Shown: positions 26,533-64,000 of the stretch, in pieces
How positions within the stretch are numbered: the stretch's first letter is position 1
Layout of the letters: every line of letters starts with the position of its first letter
Origin: Myxococcota bacterium
Lineage (GTDB): Bacteria > Myxococcota_A > Bradymonadia > UBA4248
Assembly (NCBI GenBank): GCA_045643185.1
Contig: JAZUKH010000280.1
Coordinates: 1,448 to 65,447 of the forward strand
Direction of reading: 5' to 3'
DNA length: 64,000 nucleotides
Position numbers and translations under genes: made by a program
Notes under the pieces: generated by a model
What the model was told of the DNA's origin: nothing
The model's input: the letters and a program-made list of their open reading frames with translations, nothing else
Database searches by the model: none

Positions 26533-26725
26533 TCATGCGGCGTATTCGCGCACGCGAATAGCCGCATGGCGTCGGGCGTATTCGCAAAGCGAATAGCCCG
26601 CGCTCCCCAAAATATCCCAAATAATCGTCATTTCAGCGTTGCAACGTGTTTTCCGTAGCAACGACGCGAGCCTTAGGCGTTTTCATTCAGCGCAGCTCGC
26701 ATTTCAAACATCCCAAGCACGCGGA

Positions 26726-30955: not shown

Positions 30956-31246
30956 TGAGAACCCCTGTATGAAACAGCGTCTGAAGGACGTGTTGTAAGG
31001 CGTAAGGACATAACATGGTATGAAAAAAGGCCCGCGATGCCGTAAGCCATCACGTTAAACGACCCTGCAAAGCAGGTGGGCCTCGGTATAGAGTCGGAAA
31101 GTATCCTGGACTAGCAGGCGCGCTCGCCGGATCTCTAGGGGATGAGTCCCAATGATTAACGCACAAGGGGTTTAGCATAAATCGGCGTTTCGCGAACACC
31201 GCAGGCTTTACGCGTTTATAACACGAACGAGCTCAATGGGGATAAA

Positions 31247-35304: not shown

Positions 35305-35336
35305 TCTTCCATCAGCCTTTTTTTGGGATATGGCAG

Positions 35337-35443
35337 GGGAAAGCCTTCCCCTACGCGGCTATTTTTCACACAAAGGTGCGCAGCTCGCTACGCACCTTTG
35401 TGAAAAAATACGCCGCTACCCCTTCTCGCCTGCGGCGCGCCCC
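35337..35443. repeat. MITE/REP-like intergenic element, copy B
   Basis: GGGGAAAGCCTTCCCCTACGCGGCTAT ... internal palindrome TTTTCACACAAAGGTGCGCAGC/GCTACGCACCTTTGTGAAAAA ... ATACGCCGCTACCCCTTCTCGCCTGCGGCGCGCCC. Confidence 0.65.
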
Positions 35444-41800: not shown

Positions 41801-43201
41801 CGCGATCGGCATTTCTTCATGATCGACCATCTCTTCGACCGGGCCATTGTTCACCGGTTCGTCAGCCTGAATCTGCCCTGACACAGGTTCAGACACCGGT
41901 GCAGACGCATCGACCGGTTCTTCCTGAAATTCTTCGTCGCCTTCCATGGGCGGCATGCTCGCCCCCTCGTTTGAGGCCACTGATTCATAAGGCCCCTCGT
42001 CATTCGTCGCCGCGTCGATCTCATCGAGGCTAAACGCCTGGGTCGGATTAGGCGACGATCCAAACGATTCCTCGCCTCTGTCGTCAAAGCGACGCTCTTC
42101 CAGATCCTGATCTTCAACAGGAGCCGGTTCATTCGCGGCTTCAAAGTTGGCCGGTGCCCCAAGCTCTTCCTGCGGCTCGAACGCCGGCATCGGCGCCTGT
42201 GCAGGCGCAGCCTGCGCCACACGTTCCATTTCCTGATCAAAAGAAGGCTGGTTGATCATCGTCGGACGGAACGTACCGTTACTGTTCGGAATGGGACGCA
42301 TGCCCACATTATTAGGTAACGACGGACTTGGAATTGACGGTTGTTGTGCGCCAATACCACTCATCGGGATCTTGGGCGCACCTGGCATAGACGCAAAACC
42401 AGCAGGTTTGTTCTGAGGCATGCCAACCATCGGCGAACCAGGCATACCAGGCATAGGACTATTCGGCATTGGCCCACGACCACTCGCCAGCGAGCCGCCT
42501 GGCATCTGACCAGGCATGCCAACCATCGGGCCACCAGGCATCTGACCCCCCATCGGGCCACCAGGCATCTGACCACCCATCGGACCACCAGGCATACCAC
42601 TCATCGGACCGCCAGGCATCTGACCGGGCATGCCAACCATCGGACCTTTGGGCGGCATCTGACCAGGCATGCCAACCATCGGACCGCCAGGCATCTGACC
42701 GGGCATACCAACCATCGGCTTGTTCTGAGGCATCTGACCAGGCATCTGACCGGGCATACCAACCATCGGCTTGTTCTGAGGCATCTGACCAGGCATGCCC
42801 ATCGGAGCGCCGGGCATCGGACGTATCATGCCCGGTTGAGGCGCGGCACCAGGTAGTTCAGAAAACTCCAAATTCGATTCACCACAACGCAATACGTCAC
42901 CAGGACGAATCTCAAAAGGTTCCATCGGCTTGATGCGCATATTGTTCACATAACAACCGTTCGAGCTGTTATTGTCGATAAAATAATACCGACCGTTCTG
43001 GAAAACGACTTTAGCGTGAAATCGTGAAACAGCCTTCGTCATGATCCTCAGCATGTTACCTTCGTTGCGACCTATGGTCACTTCCGGCTGCTGCGCATTG
43101 ACATCGGCATAAAAAGACTGAAAATTCTGATCCCTATAGACAATTCGCGCCACGATGCATCTCCTTAAACGGATTTTTAGGCCCTCCCTTAGGGCATACA
43201 T
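38807..43201 (-). CDS. giant FHA-domain protein with Pro/Gly/Met-rich repeats, (DDAVPMA)8 repeat and about 650-aa coiled-coil C-terminus
   Basis: N-terminal FHA ('TIGRNEGNMLRIM...FIDNNSSNGCYVNN'). 'MPGQMPGGPMVGMPGQ' repeats. Eight copies of 'DDAVPMA'. Heptad-rich SMC/myosin-like tail. Confidence 0.75.
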   Translation of the reverse strand: MYALREGLKIRLRRCIVARIVYRDQNFQSFYADVNAQQPEVTIGRNEGNMLRIMTKAVSRFHAKVVFQNGRYYFIDNNSSNGCYVNNMRIKPMEPFEIRPGDVLRCGESNLEFSELPGAAPQPGMIRPMPGAPMGMPGQMPQNKPMVGMPGQMPGQMPQNKPMVGMPGQMPGGPMVGMPGQMPPKGPMVGMPGQMPGGPMSGMPGGPMGGQMPGGPMGGQMPGGPMVGMPGQMPGGSLASGRGPMPNSPMPGMPGSPMVGMPQNKPAGFASMPGAPKIPMSGIGAQQPSIPSPSLPNNVGMRPIPNSNGTFRPTMINQPSFDQEMERVAQAAPAQAPMPAFEPQEELGAPANFEAANEPAPVEDQDLEERRFDDRGEESFGSSPNPTQAFSLDEIDAATNDEGPYESVASNEGASMPPMEGDEEFQEEPVDASAPVSEPVSGQIQADEPVNNGPVEEMVDHEEMPIAPAPLGDRYGARARGARFGRDSSVGPSAQIAPTARRVTRSVPIGRAGEASGVSAPSSSQMPAVNAAGGNPVNNMVPPAPRRNQRDRGGRMVPHPQRGFVPHEYDSSANLANEEAYGNSVMPENVLYADNHVENSYHGSENPAYREEQEFVDAYAPMNAPQNDVAEASYDQNHDYDDAVPMEDDAVPMADDAVPMADDAVPMADDAVPMADDAVPMADDAVPMADDAVPMADEGQDAGYDTPLPVTDARSVVDDDRDALANRVGESVIVEAIDDADESALSDEVNDQNGDFDAFNDVSVGSYDDDMDENELDEDISPIEDALDQPGEFLADVAVPAESEIVQVDKLSMALNEADARDAYDPEVNGESVEIPAVVQSVSNLTCIDDPRSEISCIQEESEPQFVYAQKNNYTMSAPDLGAVPDPAALEIEVTQLRTRLKAAEHEAEKLGVCLEKTMAERDDVLEKVGVLENEVATLKESLSVAKEARVAAENELRAVHDGITESDDARMSAEAEMSDLREQMADVEKNCLEAEKAQAMAERAAEEMSALLERAQKAQAEAEAERAEALEQAASALQQCDNAEVARVKAESELGAANEELEKLRDQVSELKLDIETVQAQCAQAQNSVAGQDEAVASLTQQLGEAQNVIAANAANAEALQQQLVESQNQAKALQDQVDEYQACVSRQNAELDELRAESNANEEEIVQLRAQLDASNEAKGDFDGQIMALNDKLGEVCAENLKLQQELVALRDELEASNDEKTRHFGEIQDLRSKLNEASESSTNSGAEVAELKQELEKAREENVYLETQIENLKEELDSTKEEFNLVQSSLNMAQSANEITGAELEQLRAEAVDAGNQISALRAEIAEMQNAAGDIEALRAAADEAKERVAALEAESAQLRAERDEANASLSSNSIQIESLRSLLASAQNNPAVSSGTSASEDFVKTWSTRFDAVIQYADQVVKIVNAAQGLDPSAVESVNSMFDVLKLCDKKMKKAAKSLS
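41108..41282. repeat. 21-bp tandem repeat (about 8.5 copies) encoding (DDAVPMA)n
   Basis: GTCTGCCATCGGAACCGCGTC units with minor variants (C/T, G/A) seen directly in the sequence. Confidence 0.85.
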
Positions 43202-43709: not shown

Positions 43710-44642
43710 TTATTCTTCATCTTGGCTTTCTTCATTGTCAGAAGAACCAATACATGTTTCTAAACTGTTGAGAAGTGAGGCACAAGCGACTTCGGAGTCA
43801 CTCTCATGATCCCATTCACAAATATAAAATGAGCGCATAGCGTCTTTGCAGTCATCTGTTTGTTCGCTGATGATACTGTTTACCTCCGCGATACAATCTG
43901 AAATAGGCTCGTCATTATCGGGGTTATCATCATTGATGTGTTTTTCATATTCTCTAACGCAAAATTCATTCGCTTTAATACCATAATACAAATCGAGGTA
44001 TTTTGTAGCGAGACAAAGATTTTTGTCATCAGAAGCTGACTTGCATGCTGTATCACGTTCTGATGCAGATTTATCTTTGTTTTCATAATTACATTTAACG
44101 GAGGCTTCGAGTTTGTCTTTGCAATCCGCAGCTTTTTGAATAAGATTTTGAGTATCATTAATGCACGAAGCCTGAGTTGCAGTATCATTATTGATCGCTT
44201 TGCAATAATCCGTTGTCATATCTTCAACGGACTTTTCAGCAGGTTTATCCGCGCATTTATTATCTGCGCCGCAATACGTGCTCTTGCATTCATCGCCATT
44301 GGCGCAATCGGCACCGTTGTCATTTTTGCTGTCGGCTGCTGGTTTATCCGCGCATTTTTTATTATCACCGCAATACGCGCTCTTGCATTCATCGCCATTG
44401 GCGCAATCAGCACCATTATCTTTTTTGCTGTCGGCTGCTGGTTTATCCGCGCATTTATTATCTGCGCCGCAGTATTCGCTTAAGCATTCATCGGCATTTA
44501 CGCAATCAGCACCGTTGCTCTTTCTGTCATCGTCACTATCGCTATCACACGCCGTGAAACCGAGGGATAATAAACTTACAAAACCCACCATTGTCACTAA
44601 TTTACGCATCAATTCTCTCCTATAAAAATCATATAAAAACAC
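43710..44642 (-). CDS. Cys-rich repeat lipoprotein (AT-rich, likely acquired)
   Basis: Lipobox 'LGFTACDSD'. Three copies of 'NGADCANGDECKSxYCGxxNKCADKPAADSK'. Lower GC than the flanks. Confidence 0.6.
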   Translation of the reverse strand: MFLYDFYRRELMRKLVTMVGFVSLLSLGFTACDSDSDDDRKSNGADCVNADECLSEYCGADNKCADKPAADSKKDNGADCANGDECKSAYCGDNKKCADKPAADSKNDNGADCANGDECKSTYCGADNKCADKPAEKSVEDMTTDYCKAINNDTATQASCINDTQNLIQKAADCKDKLEASVKCNYENKDKSASERDTACKSASDDKNLCLATKYLDLYYGIKANEFCVREYEKHINDDNPDNDEPISDCIAEVNSIISEQTDDCKDAMRSFYICEWDHESDSEVACASLLNSLETCIGSSDNEESQDEE

Positions 44643-48265: not shown

Positions 48266-48440
48266 AAAACATTATGAATTAAGCACATTTAGCGCGGATA
48301 ATCAAAACTTCTATGGAACCCAACGGCGATTTTTTTCAAAACCGACCCTTTAAGCGTGGTAACGTTAAACGAATGCGGATCATTCCGCGATCTTGGCCAT
48401 CGCGATCCAGTTTTCGACCGTCATGGCACCTGGTCATGCC

Positions 48441-48500
48441 GAGGGGGTAGCGGCGTATTTCGCAACGCGAAATAGCCGCGTAGGGGGAGACTTCCCCCTC
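48441..48500. repeat. MITE/REP-like element, short copy C (inverted orientation)
   Basis: Reverse complement is GAGGGGGAAGTCTCCCCCTACGCGGCTAT-TTCGCGTTGCGAA-ATACGCCGCTACCCCCTC, the same termini as copies A, B and D with a minimal palindromic core. Confidence 0.65.
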
Positions 48501-48572: not shown

Positions 48573-48646
48573 CGGAGCATAGCGCAGCCTGGTAGCGCGC
48601 TTGCATGGGGTGCAAGAGGTCGCAGGTTCAAATCCTGTTGCTCCGA
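48573..48646 (+). tRNA. tRNA-Pro (anticodon GGG)
   Basis: Cloverleaf folds: acceptor CGGAGCA/TGCTCCG, D-arm GCGC-AGCCTGGTA-GCGC, anticodon arm CTTGC-ATGGGGT-GCAAG (G37), T-arm GCAGG-TTCAAAT-CCTGT, discriminator A. Confidence 0.85.
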
Positions 48647-48668: not shown

Positions 48669-48742
48669 CGGAGCATAGCGCAGCCTGGTAGCGCGCTTGC
48701 ATGGGGTGCAAGAGGTCGCAGGTTCAAATCCTGTTGCTCCGA
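48669..48742 (+). tRNA. tRNA-Pro (anticodon GGG), identical tandem copy
   Basis: Exact duplicate of the first tRNA, 22 bp downstream. Followed by the terminator GCCCATCGCAAGATGGGCTTTTTTTT at 48779-48806. Confidence 0.85.
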
Positions 48743-49677: not shown

Positions 49678-49849
49678 GAGGGGGAAGTCTCCCCCTACGC
49701 GGCTATTTGGAATTTCTGTAGTAGACCACGCGTCAGAGACGTGTAGACCACGCGTCAGAGACGTGTAGACCACGCGTCAGAGACGTGTAGACCACGCGTC
49801 TCTACAGAAATACCAAATACGCCGCTACCCCTTCGCCTGGCAGGGGCCC
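49678..49849. repeat. MITE/REP-like element, copy D, carrying an internal 22-bp tandem array
   Basis: Same termini as A, B and C. Core is TTGGAATTTCTGTAG + (TAGACCACGCGTCAGAGACGTG)x3 + TAGACCACGCGTCTCTACAGAAATACCAA. Confidence 0.7.
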
Positions 49850-49854
49850 AGGAT

Positions 49855-49925
49855 GTTTTGTCTGGTCAGAAACTCAAAATCTCAGCCGTAGCGACGACGA
49901 AAACAAACAGGCTGAGATAATAACC
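49855..49925. ncRNA. conserved hairpin element (copy 1 of 2); candidate small RNA or regulatory stem-loop
   Basis: TTTGTCTGGTCAGAAACTCAAAATCTCAGCC-[22 nt]-GGCTGAGAT is about 80% identical to 52375-52445. The 9-bp stem is conserved. Confidence 0.3.
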
Positions 49926-51333: not shown

Positions 51334-52191
51334 ATGCCAGAATGGAATCAGTTTTTCAAAAACATTGGTGACGTTTACCAGGGTCGTACGGCTGAAACCC
51401 GTCTTCAGGGCTGCATGATTGCCCGCGTTGTGGATAACGTCGACCCCTTTGATCAGCACCGCGTCCGCATCTCCTACCCGTCGTTGGCCGACCAATATAC
51501 CAAAGATACATCGTCCAACGGTGAAGATGCCAAGATCCAAAGCCCGTGGGTCCGTATCGCAAATTTGATGGCAGGCGATGATTTCGGTAGCCTCTGGCTC
51601 CCTGAAATCGATGACGAAGTCCTCGTCGCTTTCGAAGATGGTGATATGGCTCACCCCTACATCGTCGGAAGCCTCTGGAACGGTGGCGATAGACTCGTCC
51701 CCAAAACCATGACCTATACCCCCGACCAGATCGAAGTCGAACTCTCCAATAACGCTCAGGGCGGTAAAAATGATTATCGACTCATCCGATCCCGTATGGG
51801 CCACCACATCGCCTTCATCGATAAAGAAGGAAAAGGTGGTATCTCCCTCCGCTCCAAAAAATCCGCTGAACTCTACATCGATGACGAAGATGGTAAAGAA
51901 CGTATTCGCCTCTACGATAAAGACCAAAAACAATGGCTCGAAATCGATACCGTGAATAAGAAAATTACCCTCGAAACCGATACCGGCGATATCCTCATTA
52001 AGGCCGCTGAAAAAATTCGTCTCGAATGCAAAAACCTCGAAGTCGATGCCAGCGACTCCATCACCGTCGATGCCGGCACATCCATCAAAACGACCTGCCA
52101 GACCCTCAATGCCAAAGCAAGCTCCAGCATGGATGTTAACGGCGGTACCAAGATCAAGATGAGCGCTACGCGCATCGATCTTAACCCGTAA
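51334..52191 (+). CDS. phage baseplate assembly protein V / gp5-VgrG-like spike (Phage_base_V OB-fold plus beta-helix tail)
   Basis: 'RVVDNVDPFDQHRVRISYPSL...SPWVRIANLMAGDDFGSLWLPEIDDEVLVAFEDGDMAHPYIVGSLWNG' matches the gpV/gp5 N-domain. C-terminal 'KKITLETDTGDILIKAAEKIRLECKNLEVDA...' repetitive beta-strand region. Confidence 0.7.
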   Translation: MPEWNQFFKNIGDVYQGRTAETRLQGCMIARVVDNVDPFDQHRVRISYPSLADQYTKDTSSNGEDAKIQSPWVRIANLMAGDDFGSLWLPEIDDEVLVAFEDGDMAHPYIVGSLWNGGDRLVPKTMTYTPDQIEVELSNNAQGGKNDYRLIRSRMGHHIAFIDKEGKGGISLRSKKSAELYIDDEDGKERIRLYDKDQKQWLEIDTVNKKITLETDTGDILIKAAEKIRLECKNLEVDASDSITVDAGTSIKTTCQTLNAKASSSMDVNGGTKIKMSATRIDLNP

Positions 52192-52374: not shown

Positions 52375-52445
52375 CTTTGTCTGGTCGAAAAAAATCTCAG
52401 CCGTAGCGAAGCCGAAGGCAAGCAGGCCGAGATTGGGGCGAGTGG
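52375..52445. ncRNA. conserved hairpin element (copy 2 of 2)
   Basis: CTTTGTCTGGTCGAAAAAAATCTCAGCC-[22 nt]-GGCCGAGAT. See copy 1 at 49855. Confidence 0.3.
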
Positions 52446-52508
52446 AGACGTGAGGGGCGAGCGTCTCCACGGGTTCGAAGCCGAAGACAAGTTCGCAAGC
52501 ACCCAAAA

Positions 52509-52584
52509 ACAACAAAGGCCGCTCTCGAAGAGCGGCCTTTGTTGTTCATGCCTCTATGATCTCGGGGCGCTAAGCCCCGGGATC
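52509..52584 (-). terminator. two stacked hairpins 3' of the giant gene
   Basis: AACAAAGGCCGCTCTCGAAGAGCGGCCTTTGTT and GATCTCGGGGCGCTAAGCCCCGGGATC. The second recurs 3' of the paralog (at about 63536-63565). Confidence 0.55.
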
Positions 52585-52595
52585 AGAATGACCGG

Positions 52596-55500
52596 TTAGT
52601 ACACGTTGAACTGACAGGATTCGTTGCAACTACTCACCTTGGGATCGCGGAAGTCGCAGGCTTCGTCGCCGTTCTTGATGCCATCGCCGCAGTAGGCCGC
52701 GCGCGTACAGTTGGTATTGCAACCGCCGTAAGCGCCCGTGTTGCCGTCCGTACCATTGTCACATTCTTCGCCAGCGTCGACATGACCGTCGCCGCAGAAG
52801 GCATTGAGCTTACACTTGGTCGAGCAACCGCCATAAGCGTCGTCATTGTTATTCGCGCCGTTATCGCAGGCTTCTTCGGAATCAAGCACACCGTCACCGC
52901 AGAAGTGTTCTAAGCCAGAACACGTAGCGTTACAACCGTTATAGCGGCCTGAGCCGTTGGCATCGCCATCGTCACAGACTTCTTTCGGACCATCGACCGT
53001 CGAATCGTCGTACTGAACGATGCCATCGCCGCAACGCGGACCAAGCGTACAGTCTGTACGGCAACCATTGTAAAGGGCGTTGCTGTTGTTTTCGCCATTA
53101 TCGCAGATCTCGGGATGATCAGCGTCACCGTTGAGTATGCCGTCACCGCAATAGGCGTTGAGCGTACAGCTTGTGGAGCAGCCGCCATAGAGGTTATCTT
53201 CGTTGGCTGCGCCCTTATCACAATATTCCGGATGATCTTCATCACCGTTGACACGACCGTCACCGCAGTAAGCCGCGAGTCGGCAGTTCTTCTTGCAGCC
53301 GCCATAAGCGTCGCTGAAGTTGCCCGTGCCGGGGTCGCAGGTCTCACCAGCTTCAGTGTCGATGTTTTTATCACCGCAGTAAGGTGCGCGCGTGCAGTCG
53401 GCGTTACAGGAGCCATAGACACCCGTATTGCCTTCCGTGCCGTAGTCGCATTCTTCCGGATGATCCGCATCACCGTTCTTCATGCCATCACCGCAGTAGG
53501 GGCCGAGCTGGCAAGTCGAACGACAGCCGTTGTAGGCACCCGTGTTGCCGTTAGGATCGTCGCAGACTTCATTGTCAGTATCGACAACGCCGTCGCCGCA
53601 GTAGGCCGCGAGTTGGCAATCCTTCGTGCAACCACCGTATTCGTTGTTGTTGTCATCGCCATAGTCGCAAGCTTCGGGGTGATCTGCGTCGCCATTCTTT
53701 ATGCCGTCACCGCAGAAGGCCGCGAGCGTGCAGTTGGCTTTACAACCGCCGTAGGCGCCCGTGTTACCAGCAGGATCGTCGCATTCTTCGTCGCCGTTCT
53801 TGATGCCGTCGCCGCAGAACTGGACGTAGCCGGAGCAATCGGCGTTGCAACCGTCGTAGACGTCGGCGCCATTGTGTTCGCCATCGTCACAGACTTCGTC
53901 GCCGTTCTTGATGCCGTCACCGCAGTAGGCCGCGCGCGTACAGTTGGCTTTGCAGCCGCCGTAGGCGCCCGTGTTACCAGCAGGATCGTCGCATTCTTCG
54001 TTCACCGGGTCGAGAACGCCATCACCACAGACATTGGCTTTCGTACAGTCGGACTTGCAGCCGTTGTACGAATTATCATTGAATTCAACGCCGAAGTCAC
54101 AGGCTTCGTCGCCATTCTTGATGCCATCGCCGCAGTAAGCCGCGAGCGTACAATTGGCTTTACAACCACCATAAGCGCCCGTGTTGCCAGCAGGATCGTC
54201 GCATTCTTCGTCGCCGTTCTTGATGCCGTCGCCGCAGAACTGGACGTAACCCGAGCAATCCGAGTTACAACCGTTGTAAATGTCCTGACCATTCGTCGCG
54301 CCGTCATCACAGACTTCGGAGCCATTACGAATGCCGTCACCGCAGTAAGCCGCGAGCGTACAGTTGGCTTTGCAACCACCGTAGGCACCCGTGTTGCCTG
54401 CCGTGCCGTCATCACAAGCTTCGTCGCCGTTCTTGATGCCGTCGCCGCAGAACTGAACGTAACCCGAGCAATCCGAGTTACAACCATTATAGATATTCGA
54501 ACCGTTCGAAGCGCCATCATCACAGACTTCGGAACCATTACGGATGCCGTCGCCGCAGCGAGGTCCGAGCACGCAAGCTTTGGTGCAGCCATTGTACGCG
54601 GTGTTGCTGTTCTCAGCGCCGTTATCGCAGTCTTCGTCGCCATTCTTGGTGCCATCGCCGCAATAAGGACCGAGCTTACAAGTCGCATCGCAACCATCGT
54701 ATTCGCCCTTATTGTTTGCCGTGCCGTCGTCACACTGTTCGGAGCCGTTCTTGATGCCGTCGCCGCAGTAGGCGTTCAACATACAGAGCGTGGAGCAACC
54801 GCCATAGACGCCGTCAACGTTCGAGGAACCAAGGTCGCACTCTTCGTCGCCGTTCTTGTCGCCATCACCGCAGTACGGGCCAAGCTGGCAAGTAGACGTA
54901 CAACCATCGTAAGCACCCGTGTTGTTTGCCGTGCCGTTATCGCAGACTTCGTGACCTTCATCGACGATACCATCACCGCAATACGAAGCGAGCGTACAAT
55001 CTTGGTTGCAACCGTTGTATTCGCCCTTATTGTTTGACGTGCCGTTATCACACTGTTCGTTGCCGTTCTTGGTGCCGTCACCGCAGAAGGCGTTGAGTTT
55101 GCACTTGGTCGAGCAACCACCGTAGACACCGTCTTCGTTGGCTTTGCCATAGTCGCAGTCTTCGCCAGCGTCTTTGACGCCGTCGCCGCAACGCGGTGCG
55201 AACGTACAGTCAGCATTACAACCGTTATACGAACCGTCGTTGACGCCATCGTCACACTGTTCCTTGCCGTTCACCTTGCCGTCGCCGCAATACAACGCTT
55301 TGCCCGAGCAATCGGCATTACAGCTGTTGTCGCCATAAGCATCGTTGCTGTTACGAGCGCCGTTATCGCAGACTTCGTGGCCAGCATCGATGTTGCCATC
55401 GCCGCAACGCGGAGCCTTGCGACAAGTCGTCAAGCAACCGTCAGAGCCATAAGCTGAGTCGCTGTTCGACGCGCCGTTATCGCATTGTTCTTTGCCATTG

Positions 55501-58500
55501 ACCTTGCCGTCGCCGCAACGCGGAGCCAACTTACAAGCGTCGGTACAAGCACCTTCGCCATAAGCGGACGCCTTGTTATCCGCGCCGTTATCGCACTGCT
55601 CGCCGTTAAGCGAATCGATCTCGCCATCACCGCAGAACGGAGCGAGTTCACACTTGTCGTTACAAAGACCTTTACCGTAGTTATCGGCTTTGTTCTGGTC
55701 TTTACCATCGTCGCAAGCTTCACCCTTGCTTTCCGCAACTTCGCCATCACCGCAAACCGCGTACTGGCAATTGGACGTACAGCTATCGCCGTTGGCCGCA
55801 CCATCATCGCATTGTTCACCCATCGCCGTGTCGACGACGCCGTCGCCACAGACCATGTATTTACAAGTCGTCTGGTTGCAGTTAACCGGCCAGGAACCGT
55901 CTGCATTCTTATCGCACTGTTCGCCAGCATCAACGCTACCGTTGCCGCACAACGTGCCGCCACCTGTACAGGTCGATTTGCCCGTCTTGAGGAAGCCGTC
56001 CAACGTCAACTTATACATTGAACCCTGGTCACAACGTTCCGTCTGGAAGAAGTGAAGTTCATAGATACCGTCTTCATAGATGTCATATCTCGGATCGCAG
56101 ACCATATCGTCGAACGTTTCACCATCGAGCGTACAACGCTGATTCGAAAGCGTGTTATCAGCCTGATCACCACCGCGCAAACCACCAAGGTCGACGAACT
56201 GCTTACGGTTAATGAACGCCCAAACGTCGTCATCACCCGTGAAATCGAGTTTTTCGCCACCCTTGTACTGGAAGAACGTATGGAGTTCTGACGAGAAGTT
56301 ACCGAACGTACGAACAGAACCTCTACCTTCTTTGCCATCATCATAACCAACTTTTTGAAGCGGATAGAAGTGCGCCTGAATATAGTCATGATCTTCTACG
56401 ATGGCCATATCCGAACCGTCGTAATTCTTGGCACAGACTCTCGTTCCATTGATCGTCTTACACGGATTGGCAGCATCGAACACGTATTTCGCACCCGAAT
56501 CGCCCTCTCTGAACAAGCGGAGCGTCGTGTCGAATTTCTTGTTCAAGCCTGAAAGCTCGCGATACCAATAGTAGAACGTACCCGGACAGGTAACCTGGTC
56601 GGTAATATAGTATTGGCCGTTATCCTTCGCACCGCATGCTTTCGAACCCCAGTTCGAAACGAGAACCGGTTTGCCATCGGCATCAAGTTCGTTCTCGACC
56701 ATACCGGTACAACCTTTGTTGACGGTCCAGTCGATGTTGCCATTGTGTGTTGCAGGCTTGTTACGCTGATAGTACGGACCACAACCAAAATCGGGGAAGC
56801 CGTAACCAACGTACCAATCGTTGTACGACATATCGATGGCGTTCGAATACGTGTAGGGGATCTCGTCGGAATACGTGAAATTCACTGTTCTTATATAAGT
56901 ATTCGATGAGTAACACGTAGTCCCCTTTGTATTGCAACATTGAGCACCATTCGAAGTCTTAAAGTTCTGATAATTTGTTTTTCTACACTCATAACACTGA
57001 TCATTATATTCATTACCAGTGCTGCATGTACGCTTTGAATAGCACTTACCGCCATTCTCGTACCCGCTACATGACCTGTTCGAATAGCACGTACCATCAA
57101 TGTAATAGCCACTACAGGTCAACAAGTTCGTACAAGCATTACTGACGGAATAGAACTCACCCAACAAGGCAGTGGTCATCCAACCATCGCCAGTACCGTG
57201 ACTCTGAGTTGCGCGGAAGTCGTAGTACGAAATGTCGATATCGACGTATGGATCGGACTTCATGCTTGCGAAGTCGGTGCAATCGAAGCCGGGTTCGACT
57301 TCACACTGGCTTGAGCAACCGTCACCCGAGACCATGTTACCATCGTCGCACGCTTCGGCCGGAACGAATTTGCCATTGGGGCATTCTTCTTTCGTCGCAG
57401 CGGTCGTGCCGCCTTCACACATGACGAGGCCGTTGTTATCACGTTTCGGGATCATCCACAGCGTGATGCCATCGCCACATTTCGGCGTATACGTCGCTTT
57501 GCCCGTGTCATCGTCGATGTATTCATCGAACATGACTTCGCGTTTGCAACTGGGCGAACAACCGTCGTTAGGATAGTGGTTACCGTCATCGCATTCTTCA
57601 CCGATGTCGAGGATACCGTCACGGCATTTACCTTTAACGGCATGACCGTCTTCATCGACGTGATAATTGCTTTCGAGTTTACACGCATCGCAGCCGTCGT
57701 TGGCAGCATCGTTACCATCGTCGCATTCCTCGGCGAGTTGGTATTTGACGCCATCCAATTCAACGACTTTGTCGATAACGCCGTTACCGCAGTAGACGGA
57801 GCTGTCGATTTCAGCAGCAGGTGAACATTCACCGCCGTTTTCAGGACAAGCGTAGTGTGTTTCGATCTCGCAATTTTCGTTGCAGCCATCGCCACTCGTC
57901 GTATTGCCATCGTCACAGGCTTCGCCGTACTGAACGATGCCGTCACCGCAGTAACCCTTGGTGGCACTGCACACGGTTTTTTCGTTCATTGTATAGGTAC
58001 AAGCGTAACCCTCTTCACGCTGGCAACGAGCCGAACAGCCATCGCCGTCGTTGTTGTTACCATCGTCACAGGCTTCACCCCAAGCGCGGATACCGTCGCC
58101 GCAGGCCGCCGCAACGCAGTGTTCGCCTTCATTCGGGCAGATGTAACCCGGTTCGATCTGGCCTTCGTAACAGCCATCGCCTTTATCCGTGTTGTGATCA
58201 TCGCATTTTTCGAAGTCATGCTGAACGATGCCATCGCCGTAGAGGTCGGAGATCGGACGACACCAAACGTTTTCAGCGTCATCGCGAGAGTCAGCCGTAC
58301 AAGCCTGACCGTTCGTCGGAATCGTGCCGGATGCGCAGCAGTATTCGACGGGGCAGCGTTTTGTGCTGGCGGAATAACCCTGGCACATATAGCCGGAGAC
58401 AGGCTGACAAGCGTTGGTGCACATCGTCGTTCCGTCGACCGTAGGATCGCAAACTTCGCTTGCATCACGCTGGTTGTTACCGCAAGCATCTCGGTAACAT

Positions 58501-61500
58501 CCCGAGTCATCACACATGTACTTGGGCTGAATGATGCAGTTCTTGCAGCCATCGATATCGGCGCCAAAGTCGCATTCTTCATCGCCATTGATGACGCCAT
58601 CGCCGCAACGATCCGCGAGCGTACAATCCGATTTACAACCGCCGTAGGCGCCCGTGTTGTAAGCTTCGCCATCGTCACAAACTTCGGGATGCGACGCATC
58701 ACCGTTCACGATGCCATCGCCGCAGTAAGCATTCTTGATGCACTTGCTGGAGCAGCCATCATAGACGCCATCCGCATTGGCAGAACCGTTATCACATTCT
58801 TCGCCTTCCGTCGTGTCGACGTTGCCGTCGCCGCAGTAGGACGCAAGCGTACAATCCGATTTACAACCGCCATAAAGGCCGTCATTGTAACCATCATCAC
58901 ACGCTTCCTTGCCCTCTTCGACGATGCCATCGCCGCAGAAGCGGTCGATCTTACAAGCGCTGTTGCACTTGTTGTAGCCGCCGACGTTCTGGTCAGCGTC
59001 ATCGCATTGTTCGCCGGCATTGGTATCGGTATGACCATCGCCGCAACGGGGTCCAAGCTGACAACTGGTCGTACAGCCGCCATAGACGGTGTCATTGTTA
59101 TTGACGCCGTTATCACAGACTTCAGAACCGTTGACTTTGCCATCACCGCAATAGGTGTTGGGACCGGAGCATTTAGCATTACAAGAATCGGCGCCATAAC
59201 CAGTGCCGTTCGACGCGCCGTTATCACAGACTTCGTCGCCATTCTTAATGCCGTCACCGCACCACGGGCCCCACTTGCATTCGCTGGTGCAGCTCGAGTG
59301 TTCGGCGAGTTTGTAAAGACCGGTGTTCTTGGCCGAACCAAAGTCGCAATCTTCGCCCGGGTCGACGTTGCCGTCACCGCACGAAGCGTTCACACCGGAG
59401 CAGTTGGCGTTACAGGAATCAGCGCCGTAACCGGTGCCGTTCGACGCGCCGTTATCGCAGACTTCGCTGCCGTTCTTGACGCCATCGCCGCAATACGGAC
59501 CGATTTCGCACTTCGTCGTGCAGGAACCTTCGCCGTAAGCTGCGTCGCTGTTAGCCGAGCCGTTATCACAGGCTTCGCTGCCATTTTTAACGCCGTCGCC
59601 GCAACGCGGACCAAGTTCGCAACTGGTCGTGCAGCCGTTGTAGGCGCTGTCATTGTTGGCCGAGCCGTTATCACAGGCTTCATCGCCATTCTGAGTGCCG
59701 TCACCGCACCAGCTGTTAGCCCCAGAACACGTCGCGTTACACGAATCCAGACCGTAGCCGGAACCGTTACGCGCGCCGTTATCACATTTTTCGCTGGCAT
59801 CCACGACGCCGTCGCCGCACTTGTGAGCAACGCCCGAACAACTCGCGTTACAGCTGTCGTCGCCGTAAGCATCGTCGCTGTTAGCCGCGCCGTTATCGCA
59901 AACTTCACCAGCCGACGCGTCGACGTTACCGTCGCCGCAGTAGCGAGCTACGCCCGAACAATCCGCTTTGCAGCTGTCGAGACCGTAGGCCGTGTCGCTG
60001 TTCAAACGCACGCCGTTATCGCAGACTTCGCCCTGATCGGCCTGAACCACGCCGTCACCGCAATAGAACGCCAAACCTGAACACGTCGAGTTACAGCTAT
60101 CCTCGCCATAGGCGGTGTCGCTGTTTTTCGCACCGTTATCACATTTTTCTTTGCCTGCATCGGCTTTGTCATCACCGCAGTGCGGACCGAGCTGACACTT
60201 GGTCGTGCAGCCATTGTAAGCCGTATCGCTGTTCGATTTACCGTTATCACAGACTTCCGGATGATCGGCATCGCCATTCACTTCACCGTCGCCGCAATAC
60301 GCAGCCTTCGTGCAGTCCGCATTGCAGCCGCCATAGGCACCCGTGTTCTTGTCTTTGCCAAGGTCGCATTCTTCGCGGCCATTGACGATGCCGTCACCGC
60401 AATACGCCGAGACGGTGCAATCCGAATTACAACCGGTGCCGTCCGCAACGTATTTGCCGTTATTACCACGCGTGCCAAGGTCGCACGCTTCATTGGCGTC
60501 GACCACGCCGTCACCGCAATACGAGGCGAGCTGACATTCGACCGTGCAACCGCCATAGGCGCCCGTGTTGAGCGAAGCACCAGAAGCGTCGACGCCAAGG
60601 TCGCATTTTTCGTAAGGCGCCGTGACGACGCCATCACCGCAGTACGCAACGCGTTGACAATGCGTGTCGCAACCGTCGATGCCATAAGCGCGGTCGTTGT
60701 TGCCCGGACCGTTATCACAGGCTTCGTTGTACGCCGCGTCGACCACGCCGTCGCCGCATTTGGGCGTCGCCGTACAGTCGGGATTACACGTGCCATACGC
60801 GCCCGTGTTGCCTGCATCGCCAAGGTCGCATTCTTCACCCGAACCCGGATCGACATAACCGTTACCGCAACGACCAGGCAGCGTACATGCCGGCGTACAC
60901 GTGCCATATTCACCCGTGTTGCCGTCTTCGCCGAGGTCGCATTCTTCTTTCTGATCGGCATCGACTTTGCCGTCGCCGCAACGTGAAGACAACGTACAGT
61001 CGGTGTTACACGTGCCATCAGTGCCCGAGTTGTTTTCTTTGCCAAGGTCGCATTCTTCGGCGCCGTTCTGTTCACCGTCGCCGCAGTAAGGCGCGACCGT
61101 ACAGTCGGCGTTACAACCCGTACCATCGGCCACATACGCGCCGTTGTTCTTGGCTGAACCGTTATCGCAGAGTTCGTCGCCATTGACCTCACCGTCGCCG
61201 CAGTAAAATTCTGCGCCAGAGCAGTCATCTTTACAACCGGCATCAGAACCGTCACCGACCTTGCTGTAACCGCCCACGTTGAGCGAAGCAAGCGTTGACT
61301 TATCAACGCCAAGGTCGCACTTTTCATTGCCGTTCAAAATACCGTCACCGCAGTATTCAGCGAGCGATCGGCAGTCGGCATTACAATGCCCGTACGTGCC
61401 CGGACCACCCGTCAATTCGCCAGTTCCCGGGTTAAGGTAACCTTCGTCGCAGACTTCAGCGCCCGGCGTCACAACACCGTCACCGCAGAACGGCATTTTC

Positions 61501-62894
61501 GTGGTGCAATCATTGGAACAGCCGCCGTATTCGCCGTTGTTGATTCCGTCGTCGCAGGCTTCCTTGAGCACGGCCCCCGTGTCAGGGTCAATTCCGATCT
61601 CGTCGATCTTGCCGTTACCGCAATACGCATCAGCGTGTTTACAGTTGGCCGAGCAGTGACCATAACCGCCTTCGCCGCCCGACGGGATCTTGTTACCCGC
61701 TTCATCGGTCGTCCAAAGCATCGGCTTACCATCGGCGTCCAACTTGCCATCGTCGCATTCTTCGCCCGGATCCGGGTTACCGTCACCGCAAAAGCCCGTC
61801 CACTGGCAGCTGTAGCAGTTCGCGGCGCCGCGGCTGACATCCCAGCCGTAGTCAGGCTGATCCGTATTTTTCGAAATGGGACCATAGTCGCAGTCTTCGC
61901 CACCTGCAGCATCGACGACTTCATCGCCGCAGCCTTTCGGCAAACACGACGTGTAGCCGCTCGACGTCGTCGAACACGTCCACCCTTCTTCGAGCGTACA
62001 CGTGTCAGAGCACCCGTCACCGGCCGAGGTATTACCGTCGTCGCATTCTTCCTTACCCGCCACAATGCGGTCACCGCAACGCGTCACGCAACCATCTTTC
62101 GTGCATTTCCAGCCTTTTTCGACCTTGCACTCGACCGAGCAGCCGTCGCCGTTGATCCCGTTGCCATCATCGCACTGTTCGTCCGACGTCAACAGGCCGT
62201 TACCGCAGATCTTTTCGTAAGCCGTGTCGCAGAGTTCGCCGGGGATCGGGCAAACATAGCCTTCTTCCAGCTGACATTCAGAGGAACAGCCATCGCCGCT
62301 ATCCACGTTACCATCGTCGCACTGCTCAGAGCCGACGATGATACCGTCGCTACAAATCTCTTTGCAGCCGTCGTCGCCGCATTTCCAGCCATTTTCGATC
62401 GTGCAACGCGCCGAACAGCCGTCGCCGTCCAAGGTATTACCGTCGTCGCAGCGCTCGTTGTCAGCTTTCACGCCGTCACCACACGTGTTTTTCGCAACGT
62501 GTTTAGAACAGGCACCACCGTTTTTCGGACAATCATACCCGTCTTCGATGGCCTTACAGTTAGCAAGGCAACCGTCGCCGGAATTTGTATTGCCGTCGTC
62601 ACAGGCTTCGCCATCCTCGATCGTGCCGTTGCCGCAGGTCTCCGCGCTCTCTTCCATCGAGCAAACCGTGCCATCGCACTTCCACCCCGCTTCGAGCTGG
62701 CACGCCGACGAACAACCATCGTTGCTCGCCGTGTTCCCGTCGTCGCAGGACTCGCCGACGTTAAGAACGCCATCACCACACACGCCGCCTTCCACAGGTT
62801 CATTCCCGTGTTTGCCACCGTTGTCGTGACTGCAACCTAACAGGCCGCATGCACCACAAAGACACATCGCCCATATCCAGGTTTGGGTTCTCAT
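52596..62894 (-). CDS. giant (3432 aa) secreted cysteine-rich repeat lipoprotein: about 60 TIGR02232-type 'Myxococcus cysteine-rich repeats' flanking a central fibro-slime/PA14-like region
   Basis: Start ATG complement of 62892-62894 after an AGGAGGA RBS. Lipobox 'LLGCSHD'. Repeats 'CGDG..NG.EECDDGN...GDGCS..C'. Central about 450 aa lack repeats and contain 'FTGDDDVWAFINRKQFVDLGGL' (fibro-slime/PA14-like motif). Antisense ORFs are rejected. Confidence 0.85.
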   Translation of the reverse strand: MRTQTWIWAMCLCGACGLLGCSHDNGGKHGNEPVEGGVCGDGVLNVGESCDDGNTASNDGCSSACQLEAGWKCDGTVCSMEESAETCGNGTIEDGEACDDGNTNSGDGCLANCKAIEDGYDCPKNGGACSKHVAKNTCGDGVKADNERCDDGNTLDGDGCSARCTIENGWKCGDDGCKEICSDGIIVGSEQCDDGNVDSGDGCSSECQLEEGYVCPIPGELCDTAYEKICGNGLLTSDEQCDDGNGINGDGCSVECKVEKGWKCTKDGCVTRCGDRIVAGKEECDDGNTSAGDGCSDTCTLEEGWTCSTTSSGYTSCLPKGCGDEVVDAAGGEDCDYGPISKNTDQPDYGWDVSRGAANCYSCQWTGFCGDGNPDPGEECDDGKLDADGKPMLWTTDEAGNKIPSGGEGGYGHCSANCKHADAYCGNGKIDEIGIDPDTGAVLKEACDDGINNGEYGGCSNDCTTKMPFCGDGVVTPGAEVCDEGYLNPGTGELTGGPGTYGHCNADCRSLAEYCGDGILNGNEKCDLGVDKSTLASLNVGGYSKVGDGSDAGCKDDCSGAEFYCGDGEVNGDELCDNGSAKNNGAYVADGTGCNADCTVAPYCGDGEQNGAEECDLGKENNSGTDGTCNTDCTLSSRCGDGKVDADQKEECDLGEDGNTGEYGTCTPACTLPGRCGNGYVDPGSGEECDLGDAGNTGAYGTCNPDCTATPKCGDGVVDAAYNEACDNGPGNNDRAYGIDGCDTHCQRVAYCGDGVVTAPYEKCDLGVDASGASLNTGAYGGCTVECQLASYCGDGVVDANEACDLGTRGNNGKYVADGTGCNSDCTVSAYCGDGIVNGREECDLGKDKNTGAYGGCNADCTKAAYCGDGEVNGDADHPEVCDNGKSNSDTAYNGCTTKCQLGPHCGDDKADAGKEKCDNGAKNSDTAYGEDSCNSTCSGLAFYCGDGVVQADQGEVCDNGVRLNSDTAYGLDSCKADCSGVARYCGDGNVDASAGEVCDNGAANSDDAYGDDSCNASCSGVAHKCGDGVVDASEKCDNGARNGSGYGLDSCNATCSGANSWCGDGTQNGDEACDNGSANNDSAYNGCTTSCELGPRCGDGVKNGSEACDNGSANSDAAYGEGSCTTKCEIGPYCGDGVKNGSEVCDNGASNGTGYGADSCNANCSGVNASCGDGNVDPGEDCDFGSAKNTGLYKLAEHSSCTSECKWGPWCGDGIKNGDEVCDNGASNGTGYGADSCNAKCSGPNTYCGDGKVNGSEVCDNGVNNNDTVYGGCTTSCQLGPRCGDGHTDTNAGEQCDDADQNVGGYNKCNSACKIDRFCGDGIVEEGKEACDDGYNDGLYGGCKSDCTLASYCGDGNVDTTEGEECDNGSANADGVYDGCSSKCIKNAYCGDGIVNGDASHPEVCDDGEAYNTGAYGGCKSDCTLADRCGDGVINGDEECDFGADIDGCKNCIIQPKYMCDDSGCYRDACGNNQRDASEVCDPTVDGTTMCTNACQPVSGYMCQGYSASTKRCPVEYCCASGTIPTNGQACTADSRDDAENVWCRPISDLYGDGIVQHDFEKCDDHNTDKGDGCYEGQIEPGYICPNEGEHCVAAACGDGIRAWGEACDDGNNNDGDGCSARCQREEGYACTYTMNEKTVCSATKGYCGDGIVQYGEACDDGNTTSGDGCNENCEIETHYACPENGGECSPAAEIDSSVYCGNGVIDKVVELDGVKYQLAEECDDGNDAANDGCDACKLESNYHVDEDGHAVKGKCRDGILDIGEECDDGNHYPNDGCSPSCKREVMFDEYIDDDTGKATYTPKCGDGITLWMIPKRDNNGLVMCEGGTTAATKEECPNGKFVPAEACDDGNMVSGDGCSSQCEVEPGFDCTDFASMKSDPYVDIDISYYDFRATQSHGTGDGWMTTALLGEFYSVSNACTNLLTCSGYYIDGTCYSNRSCSGYENGGKCYSKRTCSTGNEYNDQCYECRKTNYQNFKTSNGAQCCNTKGTTCYSSNTYIRTVNFTYSDEIPYTYSNAIDMSYNDWYVGYGFPDFGCGPYYQRNKPATHNGNIDWTVNKGCTGMVENELDADGKPVLVSNWGSKACGAKDNGQYYITDQVTCPGTFYYWYRELSGLNKKFDTTLRLFREGDSGAKYVFDAANPCKTINGTRVCAKNYDGSDMAIVEDHDYIQAHFYPLQKVGYDDGKEGRGSVRTFGNFSSELHTFFQYKGGEKLDFTGDDDVWAFINRKQFVDLGGLRGGDQADNTLSNQRCTLDGETFDDMVCDPRYDIYEDGIYELHFFQTERCDQGSMYKLTLDGFLKTGKSTCTGGGTLCGNGSVDAGEQCDKNADGSWPVNCNQTTCKYMVCGDGVVDTAMGEQCDDGAANGDSCTSNCQYAVCGDGEVAESKGEACDDGKDQNKADNYGKGLCNDKCELAPFCGDGEIDSLNGEQCDNGADNKASAYGEGACTDACKLAPRCGDGKVNGKEQCDNGASNSDSAYGSDGCLTTCRKAPRCGDGNIDAGHEVCDNGARNSNDAYGDNSCNADCSGKALYCGDGKVNGKEQCDDGVNDGSYNGCNADCTFAPRCGDGVKDAGEDCDYGKANEDGVYGGCSTKCKLNAFCGDGTKNGNEQCDNGTSNNKGEYNGCNQDCTLASYCGDGIVDEGHEVCDNGTANNTGAYDGCTSTCQLGPYCGDGDKNGDEECDLGSSNVDGVYGGCSTLCMLNAYCGDGIKNGSEQCDDGTANNKGEYDGCDATCKLGPYCGDGTKNGDEDCDNGAENSNTAYNGCTKACVLGPRCGDGIRNGSEVCDDGASNGSNIYNGCNSDCSGYVQFCGDGIKNGDEACDDGTAGNTGAYGGCKANCTLAAYCGDGIRNGSEVCDDGATNGQDIYNGCNSDCSGYVQFCGDGIKNGDEECDDPAGNTGAYGGCKANCTLAAYCGDGIKNGDEACDFGVEFNDNSYNGCKSDCTKANVCGDGVLDPVNEECDDPAGNTGAYGGCKANCTRAAYCGDGIKNGDEVCDDGEHNGADVYDGCNADCSGYVQFCGDGIKNGDEECDDPAGNTGAYGGCKANCTLAAFCGDGIKNGDADHPEACDYGDDNNNEYGGCTKDCQLAAYCGDGVVDTDNEVCDDPNGNTGAYNGCRSTCQLGPYCGDGMKNGDADHPEECDYGTEGNTGVYGSCNADCTRAPYCGDKNIDTEAGETCDPGTGNFSDAYGGCKKNCRLAAYCGDGRVNGDEDHPEYCDKGAANEDNLYGGCSTSCTLNAYCGDGILNGDADHPEICDNGENNSNALYNGCRTDCTLGPRCGDGIVQYDDSTVDGPKEVCDDGDANGSGRYNGCNATCSGLEHFCGDGVLDSEEACDNGANNNDDAYGGCSTKCKLNAFCGDGHVDAGEECDNGTDGNTGAYGGCNTNCTRAAYCGDGIKNGDEACDFRDPKVSSCNESCQFNVY

Positions 62895-63123
62895 ATTTCC
62901 TCCTATCACAAACAAAATTGTTTGTGCTCGTTTCGGATCCGCGCCCCCTATGGGCGCTATATACACAAATACACTATATTATATGCAATGCACGCTTCAA
63001 CTTCAACGACTAAGCACGCATTTTGACCATGGTTAGCCCAATTGCCTATTATTTTAGGCGCGGCTATTTCATACGCCGCGCCCGCGTCGCTTCTCCCTCG
63101 CTTGAGCCGCCCGTACCGGACGG

Positions 63124-63270
63124 CTCTACGCTCGGTCAATACGCGACGCGTTTTTTATTTACTCTACGCTCGGTCAATACGCGACGCGTTTTTTATTTAC
63201 TCTACGCTCGGTCAATACGCGACGCGTTTTTTATTTACTCTACGCTCGGTCAATACGTGACGCGTTGTCA
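63124..63270. repeat. 38-bp direct tandem repeat x4 (CTCTACGCTCGGTCAATACGCGACGCGTTTTTTATTTA)
   Basis: Seen directly in the intergenic region upstream of the giant gene. Confidence 0.85.
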
Positions 63271-63276
63271 TTTGAA

Positions 63277-63440
63277 AGCGAAGGCGTATCGGCAAAGCCG
63301 ATAGCCGAAGCCGCGCGCCGTATTTGCGTAAGCAAATAGGCGCACGAAAAAAAATAATAAAGCGAAGGCGTATCGGCAAAGCCGATAGCCGAAGCTGCGC
63401 GCCGTATTTGCGTGAGCAAATAGGCGCACGAAAAAATATT
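63277..63440. repeat. about 84-bp direct repeat x2 containing REP-like palindromes (TATCGGCAAAGCCGATA; CGCCGTATTTGCG-AAGC-AAATAGGCG)
   Basis: AAAGCGAAGGCGTATCGGCAAAGCCGATAGCCGAAGC[C/T]GCGCGCCGTATTTGCGT[A/G]AGCAAATAGGCGCACGAAAAAA occurs twice. Confidence 0.8.
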
Positions 63441-63574
63441 AATAAATAATAATTTTTATCAAAGCATGACAATATGTTTATTTTTCAATGACATACACAG
63501 AGTACAAAAAAAGGCCGCACGGATTAGGTGCGGCCTTGAGGCTCGGAGCTAAGCCCCGAGATCAGAATGAACGG

Positions 63575-64000
63575 TTAGTACACGTTGAACTGACAGGATT
63601 CGCTGCAACCACTCGCCTTTGGATCGCGGAAGTCGCAGGCTTCGTCGCCGTTCTTGATGCCATCGCCGCAGTAGGCAGCGCGCGTGCAGTTGGTATTGCA
63701 ACCGCCGTAAGCGCCCGTGTTTGCCGCCGCGCCATCGTCGCATTCCTCGCCGTTGTCCGTGTCGATACGACCGTCACCGCAGTAGGAAGCGAGCGTGCAG
63801 TTGACATTACAGCCGCCGTAACCACCGACGTTGTTGTCAGCGCCGAGGTCGCAGGCTTCTTCCGGATCGAGCGTACCGTCGCCGCAACGACGACCGAGCT
63901 GACAATTTGCCGTACAGCCGTTGTAGGCATCCGTGCCGTTGGCTGAGCCCTTGTCACAGACTTCGCCTTCGTCGGCCTGAATGACCCCGTCACCGCAGCG
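63575..64000 (-). CDS. C-terminal part of a second cysteine-rich repeat protein (tandem paralog of the giant gene; continues beyond window)
   Basis: The last about 150 nt (63575-63730) are nearly identical to 52596-52750, including C-terminal '...CNESCQFNVY*' and the downstream hairpin. The track ORF 63562..63993 is in the wrong frame. Confidence 0.75.
   Translation of the reverse strand, partial: RCGDGVIQADEGEVCDKGSANGTDAYNGCTANCQLGRRCGDGTLDPEEACDLGADNNVGGYGGCNVNCTLASYCGDGRIDTDNGEECDDGAAANTGAYGGCNTNCTRAAYCGDGIKNGDEACDFRDPKASGCSESCQFNVY

Follow-up and report, generated by a model that had tools for sequence, protein, structure and literature searches.

Repetitive extragenic palindromes (REPs) and bacterial interspersed mosaic elements (BIMEs) of Enterobacteria and Pseudomonas are short imperfect palindromes with an extrahelical base. 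They are strictly intergenic, often follow gene ends, are dispersed in many copies and both orientations, and may be clustered with alternating orientations in one spacer. Rho-independent terminators, including tandem and double-hairpin forms, are GC-clamped hairpins with T/U-runs right after stop codons, while ectopic gene conversion, as described for tufA/tufB and for repeat-rich surface-protein families, leaves bounded near-identical tracts in diverged paralogs that take in silent sites and non-coding flank. All three likenesses are seen in a 64,000-nt stretch of contig JAZUKH010000280.1 from a Myxococcota bacterium (the window), where a 680-bp spacer (62895-63574) separates a giant gene from a same-strand paralog lying upstream of it. 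The reading that we favour, with a probability of about 0.6, is that this spacer is a BIME-like cluster of terminator- or REP-like hairpins with local tandem amplification, beside gene 3' ends that were recently homogenised.

The bulged-C hairpin family

The hairpins are built to one design. A GC-rich arm is followed by TAT, in some cases an upper stem with its loop, then ATA, a single unpaired C and the arm complementary to the first. Scanned strictly for this design (outer stem of at least five perfect pairs), the window gave 10 matches, compared with 0.03 expected from 100 Markov-chain randomisations keeping dinucleotide frequencies. The controls were close to empty, with one match for a bulged A, none for G or T and two for no bulge, and any other 3-mer core in place of the family core gave at most two. 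The bulged-C hairpin family is real. It comprises about 12 distinct hairpins across seven intergenic regions, every one between long open reading frames (ORFs; a few of these were checked with Pfam):

10548-10632: family member, intergenic
21049-21072: family member, intergenic
26534-26600: two family members, intergenic
35355-35416: family member, intergenic, after clpX
48450-48479: family member, intergenic
49699-49825: family member, intergenic
63057-63082, plus strand: family hairpin in the spacer, GGCGCGGC-TAT-TTC-ATA-C-GCCGCGCC, opposite to the flanking genes

The spacer also holds two copies each of two further members, hairpins A and B, all on the minus strand. These are the palindromes that the reading made from the letters of the window (the sequence-only reading) had called REP-like, and that description holds for them as members of a dispersed, lineage-wide family.

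Strict matches numbered 15 in the 68.6 kb of five related metagenome-assembled genome (MAG) loci (L002, L003, L010, L013 and L020), against one in the approximately 865 kb of the other 61 loci of the genome scan; by these counts the family is specific to this gut lineage. Parts of the spacer hairpins recur in the relatives, namely the hairpin A upper stem TATTTGC..GCAAATAC in L003 and L013 and the hairpin B upper stem TATCGGC..GCCGATAC in L010. Placement relative to genes is also repeated. A double hairpin followed by T7-T9 lies just past the stop codon of the L002 DUF4215 gene (hairpins 8441-8507, stop codon at 8418) and at long-ORF ends in L003 and L010, and a hairpin in the opposite orientation is found 100-185 nt upstream of each DUF4215 gene start (L002, L003, L013 and L020). 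The L020 layout mirrors the window spacer, sense hairpins following gene 1 and a reversed one preceding a DUF4215 gene.

In being short and imperfect with an extrahelical base, strictly intergenic, often placed after gene ends, dispersed in both orientations and clustered with alternating orientations in one spacer, the family resembles REPs and BIMEs. It differs from them in conserving the mid-stem TAT/ATA-C while the GC arms vary, and in that parts of the element are tandemly amplified here as 84-bp and 38-bp units. The 5' GTAG of REPs is absent from most copies, being seen only on the reverse strand of four composite copies described below (..GGGGTAGCGGCG..); neither hairpins A and B nor 63057-63082 have the tetranucleotide GT(A/G)G, and most copies in the relatives lack it too. 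No gene for a REP-associated tyrosine transposase (RAYT) was seen in the window, whose ORFs were not systematically screened for Y1 transposases. The hairpins and T/U-runs right after stop codons, at 63504-63537 and in L002, L003 and L010, are reminiscent of Rho-independent terminators. In contrast with these, the family stem motif is conserved in sequence across species, and some copies lack a T-run or face away from the nearest gene.

Some family hairpins sit inside a larger composite dispersed element, consisting of AGGGGGAAGTCTCCCCCTAC, the family hairpin (GCGGCTAT, a variable insert of 10-100 nt, ATACGCCGC) and then TACCCCTTCGCC(TGGCGGGGCCC). The window has four copies (10528-10657, 35335-35441 and 49679-49850 on the plus strand; 48430-48500 on the minus strand), and related MAG loci have others at L003 60-170 and L013 10710-10765. 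Rfam gave no match at E≤0.5 at the dispersed elements, composite ones included. The loop of the hairpin at 49699-49825 contains a perfect 22-bp x3.6 array (GTAGACCACGCGTCAGAGACGT), a second tandem amplification within the family.

The spacer and the gene ends beside it

Read in the direction of the genes, the spacer runs from the paralog stop codon through a stop-proximal hairpin, a terminator with U7, an AT-rich tract, two 84-bp modules and a 38-bp array. Below these follow a long hairpin (63150 to 63084), the short family hairpin (63082 to 63057), a promoter-like site, an 81-nt leader, a ribosome-binding site and the ATG of the giant gene. The genes and the features between them are:

52596-62894, minus strand: giant gene, 10.3 kb, 3432 aa, ATG start with a GGAGG ribosome-binding site
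62895-62975, minus strand: putative 5' untranslated region (UTR), with hairpins at 62941-62957 and 62907-62926 and an AGGAGG ribosome-binding site at 62898-62903
62978-63006, minus strand: best promoter-like site of the giant gene, TTGAAG-17-TATAAT, sigma-70-like, a consensus match only
63023-63052, plus strand: TTGACC-18-TATTAT, a promoter-like site (consensus match only) directed towards the hairpins and the 38-bp array
63084-63150, plus strand: long GC-rich hairpin, 8-bp stem CGCGTCGC/GCGACGCG enclosing GAGCCG..CGGCTC, then T6
63124-63266, plus strand: 38-bp x3.8 array (Tandem Repeats Finder, 99% matches), three perfect copies and a 29-nt partial copy
63275-63446, minus strand: 84-bp x2.0 array (Tandem Repeats Finder, 95% matching), the copies differing at 4 positions
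about 63420-63509 (feature 63430-63503), no strand: AT-rich tract, 22-23% GC, with weak minus-strand promoter-like sites from 63462 to 63433
63504-63537, minus strand: Rho-independent terminator of the paralog, 10-bp stem, then U7
63542-63560, minus strand: stop-proximal hairpin of the paralog, CUCGGGGC-UUA-GCUCCGAG, from fold and alignment
63575-64000, minus strand: 3' part of the DUF4215 paralog, TAA stop codon at 63575-63577, 141 codons visible, cut by the window end

Each 84-bp unit consists of a U-rich leader, hairpin A (63315-63343 and 63399-63427) and hairpin B (63283-63306 and 63367-63390). The 38-bp unit reads ..CAATAC-GCGACGCG-TTTTTTATTTA. It contains ATAC, GCGACGCG and a T-run, and can pair with the single 5' arm CGCGTCGC at 63084, so that in sequence it looks like the 3' arm and T-tail of the long hairpin 63084-63150. 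Pattern search, blastn and a covariance model found neither unit elsewhere in the window, and the complete 84-bp unit was rejected as a dispersed element, the covariance model turning up no further copy either in the window or across 930 kb of related loci.

The spacer as a whole folds far better than shuffled sequence (z -9.0 and -8.4 on the two strands), and its structure is concentrated in the 84-bp units and the GC-rich region 63053-63150. One 84-bp unit has a folding energy of approximately -39 to -40 kcal/mol (z -5.8 to -6.0), while the fold of the 38-bp unit alone is not significant (z -1.3/-1.6). The sequence-only reading had been right about the spacer length and the AT-rich tract, and its 38-bp x4 and 84-bp x2 arrays were recovered with a copy number of 3.8 for the former. 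Its statement that the spacer consists largely of arrays went too far, as they make up 315 of the 680 bp (46%), and its description of the repeats as structured applies to the 84-bp unit (z -5.8) and not to the 38-bp unit alone.

The spacer is non-coding: the 38-bp period is not divisible by 3, its ORFs lack plausibility, and a coding role was rejected. Rfam gave no match in the spacer at E≤1. A CRISPR array was discarded, the copies being head-to-tail without spacers between the repeats. An iteron-type replication origin was also discarded, since the spacer has no DnaA box, the count in the window is at chance and the cumulative GC skew is monotonic, as was an invertible promoter (inverton), no inverted-repeat pair of at least 12 nt being present in 62700-63800.

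The second part of the case lies in the two gene ends. Their 3' ends share a tract of 177 nt, followed in each gene by its own terminator:

52566-52742, minus strand: giant-gene copy of the shared tract, spanning the last 48 codons with their stop codon and reaching 30 nt into the 3' UTR
63545-63721, minus strand: shared tract, paralog copy, aligned to the giant-gene copy at a fixed offset of 10,979 nt
about 52557-52585, minus strand: stop-proximal hairpin of the giant gene, counterpart of the one in the paralog, from fold and alignment
about 52507-52547, minus strand: terminator hairpin of the giant gene, 19-bp stem, then a U-run

The two copies are identical at 168 of 177 positions (94.9%), with a longest exact run of 56 nt, and the identity is spread over the 3' UTR (27/30), the stop codon and the last 48 codons (138/144). 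Outside the tract it falls abruptly, to 63% with indels in the coding sequence just upstream and to 30%, the random level, further downstream. Nor is it a background of the repeats in these genes: the paralog is at most 82.8% identical to the internal ~105-nt repeat units of the giant gene, and when the giant gene is compared with itself its best pairs reach 82% over 155 nt and 85% over 300 nt. Three of the nine differences are in the UTR and six in the coding part, where three are non-synonymous (V/A, S/G and N/S) and three at third codon positions, so protein selection does not explain the near-identity. The tract is bounded, its identity is far above that of its flanks, and silent and non-coding sites are included, as in gene-conversion tracts; on this profile it is best read as a patch left by gene conversion or by unequal recombination, or else as a gene end that was recently duplicated. 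The likeness to described ectopic conversion is limited in that only two copies and a single tract are visible here.

The earlier claim of identical 3' ends therefore survives as sharing over 177 nt at 95%, and its interpretation as gene conversion or recent duplication fits a sharply bounded tract that includes synonymous and 3' UTR sites in genes otherwise about 63% identical. The nine differences inside the tract and the 63% identity beyond it are not what a misassembled second copy of one gene, the case named as fatal to that interpretation, would look like. The claim of an identical terminator was not supported. Only the small stop-proximal hairpin is shared, with a different 3' arm (CGGGGC/GCCCCG versus CUCGGGGC/GCUCCGAG), and the intrinsic terminators differ in sequence. 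That of the paralog (AAGGCCGCAC..GTGCGGCCTT, stem 63511-63537) is a GC-rich stem-loop directly before a U-run (63537 to 63511, then U7), as predicted for an intrinsic terminator, and that of the giant gene reads ..AAAGGCCGCTCT..AGAGCGGCCTTT... They have a GGCCGC stem base in common and otherwise no sequence identity; the 99-nt 3' UTR of the giant gene folds at -55.8 kcal/mol (z -8).

A diversity-generating retroelement (DGR) likewise has about 150 nt of a gene 3' end and the following hairpin duplicated nearby, as a variable and a template repeat (VR/TR). Here, unlike in DGRs, both copies are in-frame gene ends with no adjacent reverse transcriptase gene. A VR/TR pair was rejected because the mismatches are not adenine-specific: at the nine mismatches the coding strand has two adenines in the giant-gene copy and one in the paralog copy. 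The only reverse-transcriptase-like match, none being adjacent to the tract, was the RVT_3 part of an RNase H protein (20260-20994).

Both neighbours of the spacer encode, by their domain matches, cysteine-rich DUF4215 repeat proteins, and the giant one at least is a predicted lipoprotein with a fibro-slime domain. The giant-gene product begins with a lipoprotein-type signal peptide (MRTQTWIWAMCLCGACGLLGC, ..LLGC), is 10% cysteine and has approximately 68 CGDG-type cysteine-rich repeats, with matches to DUF4215 (PF13948, 1.9e-104) and myxo_disulf_rpt (TIGR02232, 1.4e-188) and a central fibro-slime domain (TIGR02148, aa 2199-2296, 47.9 bits against a cut-off of 45, E 1.3e-12). The paralog, known only as a 3' fragment on a 65,724-bp contig that extends at most 1.7 kb past the window end, matches DUF4215 (1.6e-06, 28.7 bits against a cut-off of 27) and myxo_disulf_rpt (1.8e-12). 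A C-terminal sorting signal in the giant protein was rejected, its tail (CDFRDPK..CQFNVY) having no hydrophobic segment; related proteins likewise end just past the last half repeat. No exact match was found for the giant protein, looked up with either of two alternative starts, or for the spacer ORFs. Protein searches with the giant gene reached at best 53% identity for the N-terminus and 34% for the central domain, and the best identity of the paralog tail in the scan of genome contigs was 48-54%. Metagenome DNA scans with hairpin A and with a 21-mer from the tail gave no match, and neither did one viral scan.

Probable origin and role of the spacer modules

How these parts fit together may be set out as follows. 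The 3' ends of the two genes would have been homogenised recently by ectopic gene conversion or unequal recombination, as their identity profile suggests, and the spacer between them would be a BIME-like cluster of the lineage-specific hairpin family. Past the paralog terminator this cluster would comprise two tandem modules in sense orientation, each a double hairpin with a U-rich segment, and then, just above the giant-gene promoter, a pair of oppositely oriented hairpins with a T-run behind them. Both arrays would be local tandem duplications of module parts, (hairpin A + hairpin B) x2 and (3' arm + T-tail) x3.8, which probably arose by replication slippage or unequal crossing-over at hairpin-forming DNA. 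From their context in relatives, the modules likely serve termination or insulation between genes, or stabilisation of mRNA 3' ends, and the extra array copies are probably neutral or only modulatory. The earlier suggestion of a recombination hotspot is plausible in the sense of a locally recombinogenic, slippage-prone region, a picture with which the conversion tract agrees, as do the perfect tandem copies.

Several points weigh against this account. The long hairpin 63084-63150 has TTC at the position of the family TAT and so resembles the family without matching it. In the 84-bp modules hairpin B is followed by UUCGCUUUAUUAUUUUUUUU, where only four of the first 8 nt are U, and so falls short of the strict rule for terminators. 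Family hairpins face both orientations relative to genes, so termination is not their sole role. All terminators and promoters given here are fold or consensus predictions only, and in a MAG contig the array copy numbers possibly depend on the assembly. The identity of the tract could in principle stem from selection on a 3' RNA element instead of conversion. Finally, no orthologous locus or second assembled strain turned up in the protein, genome-contig, metagenome and viral searches.

The arrays might instead be cis-regulatory, the 38-bp units carrying regulator sites (the 11-bp palindrome ACGCGACGCGT) and their copy number tuning or phase-varying the giant gene. Every one of the three complete units has the palindrome once and the partial copy has one variant of it, and its four exact matches in the window compare with 0.43 expected; this enrichment, however, is due to one tandem duplication and not to independent sites. 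Relative to the predicted -35 element of the giant gene, the arrays are some 120-470 bp upstream, and giant surface-type proteins are a class that is often phase-variable, as with the Neisseria nadA TAAA tract and the Haemophilus hmw 7-bp repeats, which are also tandem repeats upstream of large surface-type genes. Known repeats of promoter phase variation have units of 1-9 bp in or beside the core promoter, whereas the units here are 38 and 84 bp long and more than 110 bp above the predicted -35 element. A spacing of 38 bp is 3.6 helical turns and would put the sites out of phase, no regulator gene is adjacent, and there is no sigma-54 promoter to pair with distant activator sites. The proposal of a repeat-regulated promoter in the sequence-only reading was not borne out, as the best sigma-70-like site lies below both arrays, 84 nt upstream of the giant-gene ATG and 118 bp below the nearest array, and we regard cis-regulation by the arrays as improbable. 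Much the same standing is given to small RNAs from the spacer, either an approximately 100-nt plus-strand RNA from TTGACC-18-TATTAT to the T-run 63151-63156 or an approximately 80-nt minus-strand RNA per 84-bp unit. A promoter-like site, two stable hairpins and a T-run (fold -49.6 kcal/mol, z -4.9) are a classic small-RNA layout, and each 84-bp unit offers two hairpins and a U-rich tail beside the weak promoter-like sites of the AT-rich tract. Yet 63053-63165 folds better on the minus strand (-61.9 versus -49.6 kcal/mol), many intergenic regions carry the hairpin design without promoter-like context, and Rfam and the 84-bp covariance model returned nothing that would mark a small-RNA family; small RNAs are an unlikely product of the spacer.

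Selection on a 3' module formed by the C-terminal peptide and the 3'-UTR hairpin, acting for instance on the stability or localisation of the mRNA, would keep the shared tail alike without recent conversion. That the stop-proximal hairpin is kept in both genes though its 3' arm differs, and that related proteins also terminate right past the last half repeat, would fit. The conservation of synonymous sites over 48 codons, with three third-position changes against three of six non-synonymous, is the opposite of what protein-level selection leaves, and the tails of the relatives are unrelated and have no such hairpin, which makes selection a quite improbable explanation. Least probable of all is an assembly artefact in which the shared tail or the arrays come from a chimeric or collapsed short-read assembly. 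The MAG contig does break off in the repetitive paralog, no more than 1.7 kb past the end of the window, and for a second sample, in which two window proteins have identical copies and the strain is likely the same, assembly gave 1.5-3.4-kb contigs only. But the tract copies have distinct flanks on both sides in addition to their nine differences, the 84-bp copies are told apart by their four, and the three perfect 38-bp copies add up to 114 bp, a length that reads or k-mers can cover. The BIME-like cluster beside homogenised gene ends accordingly remains the reading that we prefer.

The leader and start of the giant gene add some observations of their own. The giant-gene transcript is predicted to start near 62970. 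The putative 5' UTR folds with z -4.35, and a sigma-54 promoter with upstream activator sites was rejected, no such promoter being found. The giant gene (62892-63030, minus strand) and the L003 DUF4215 gene (230-339, plus strand) have a similar translation-start context, GTGATAGGAGGA..ATG, and in both a CAAAATGCGT motif lies about 110-130 nt upstream of the ATG. Motif and start context may be a conserved promoter or operator element of the DUF4215 gene family.

Other features of the window and meaning for the lineage

Further genes and repeats were seen in the window. A second, unrelated two-copy dispersed element, TTTGTCTGGTC..AAAATCTCAGCCGTAGCGA..CAGGC(T/C)GAGAT, is present at 49857-49912 and at 52376-52440, the latter copy just downstream of the giant-gene terminator. 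Directly downstream of the giant gene and convergent with it is a stand-alone 285-aa Phage_base_V (gp5/VgrG-like spike) protein (51334-52191, plus strand), which has an identical copy on a short ENA contig (sample ERZ27247232). Two identical tRNA-Pro(GGG) genes stand in tandem 22 nt apart (48573-48646 and 48669-48742), and 6S RNA (SsrS) was found at 31025-31210 on the minus strand (51.8 bits against a gathering score of 46.4). Repeats within genes occur at 43710-44642 (minus strand), which encodes a 310-aa cysteine-rich putative lipoprotein of 33-aa repeats (99-bp x2.8 array) with no Pfam match, and at 38807-43201 (minus strand), which encodes a 1464-aa protein with an FHA domain and coiled-coil regions and contains several tandem arrays in its coding sequence, among them one of 21 bp x8.2 (41109-41281) and periods of 27 to 75 bp (42519-42796). 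The only transposase-like ORF among those scanned with Pfam was YhgA-like (Transposase_31; 11829-12815, plus strand). The organism is an uncultured Bradymonadia-like bacterium related to Myxococcota; ClpX of the window is 82-84% identical to MAG proteins and 57-65% identical to proteins of Bradymonadales or Bradymonadia MAGs.

A more far-reaching possibility, which we think doubtful, is that the TAT..ATA-bulged-C hairpins are a new structure-specific recognition element and that their amplified copies form a copy-number-variable insulator or switch between giant adhesin-like genes. If true, the hairpins could be the substrate of a single-strand DNA transposase or recombinase, or of an RNA-binding protein, and copy number would control how much transcription continues from the paralog into the giant gene, or how strongly the giant gene is expressed.

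On the preferred reading, that of a BIME-like hairpin cluster beside homogenised gene ends, the locus is ordinary in kind and useful mainly as a description; it opens no long-standing question, and the conserved bulged-C family is a moderately interesting by-product. It would illustrate the evolution of repeat-rich surface-protein genes, and of the spacers between them, in an uncultured gut Myxococcota-like lineage, through concerted evolution of gene ends and tandem amplification of hairpins. The GC arm-TAT..ATA-C-GC arm motif marks the intergenic regions of this lineage and could aid the annotation of terminators and REP-like elements as well as checks of MAGs.

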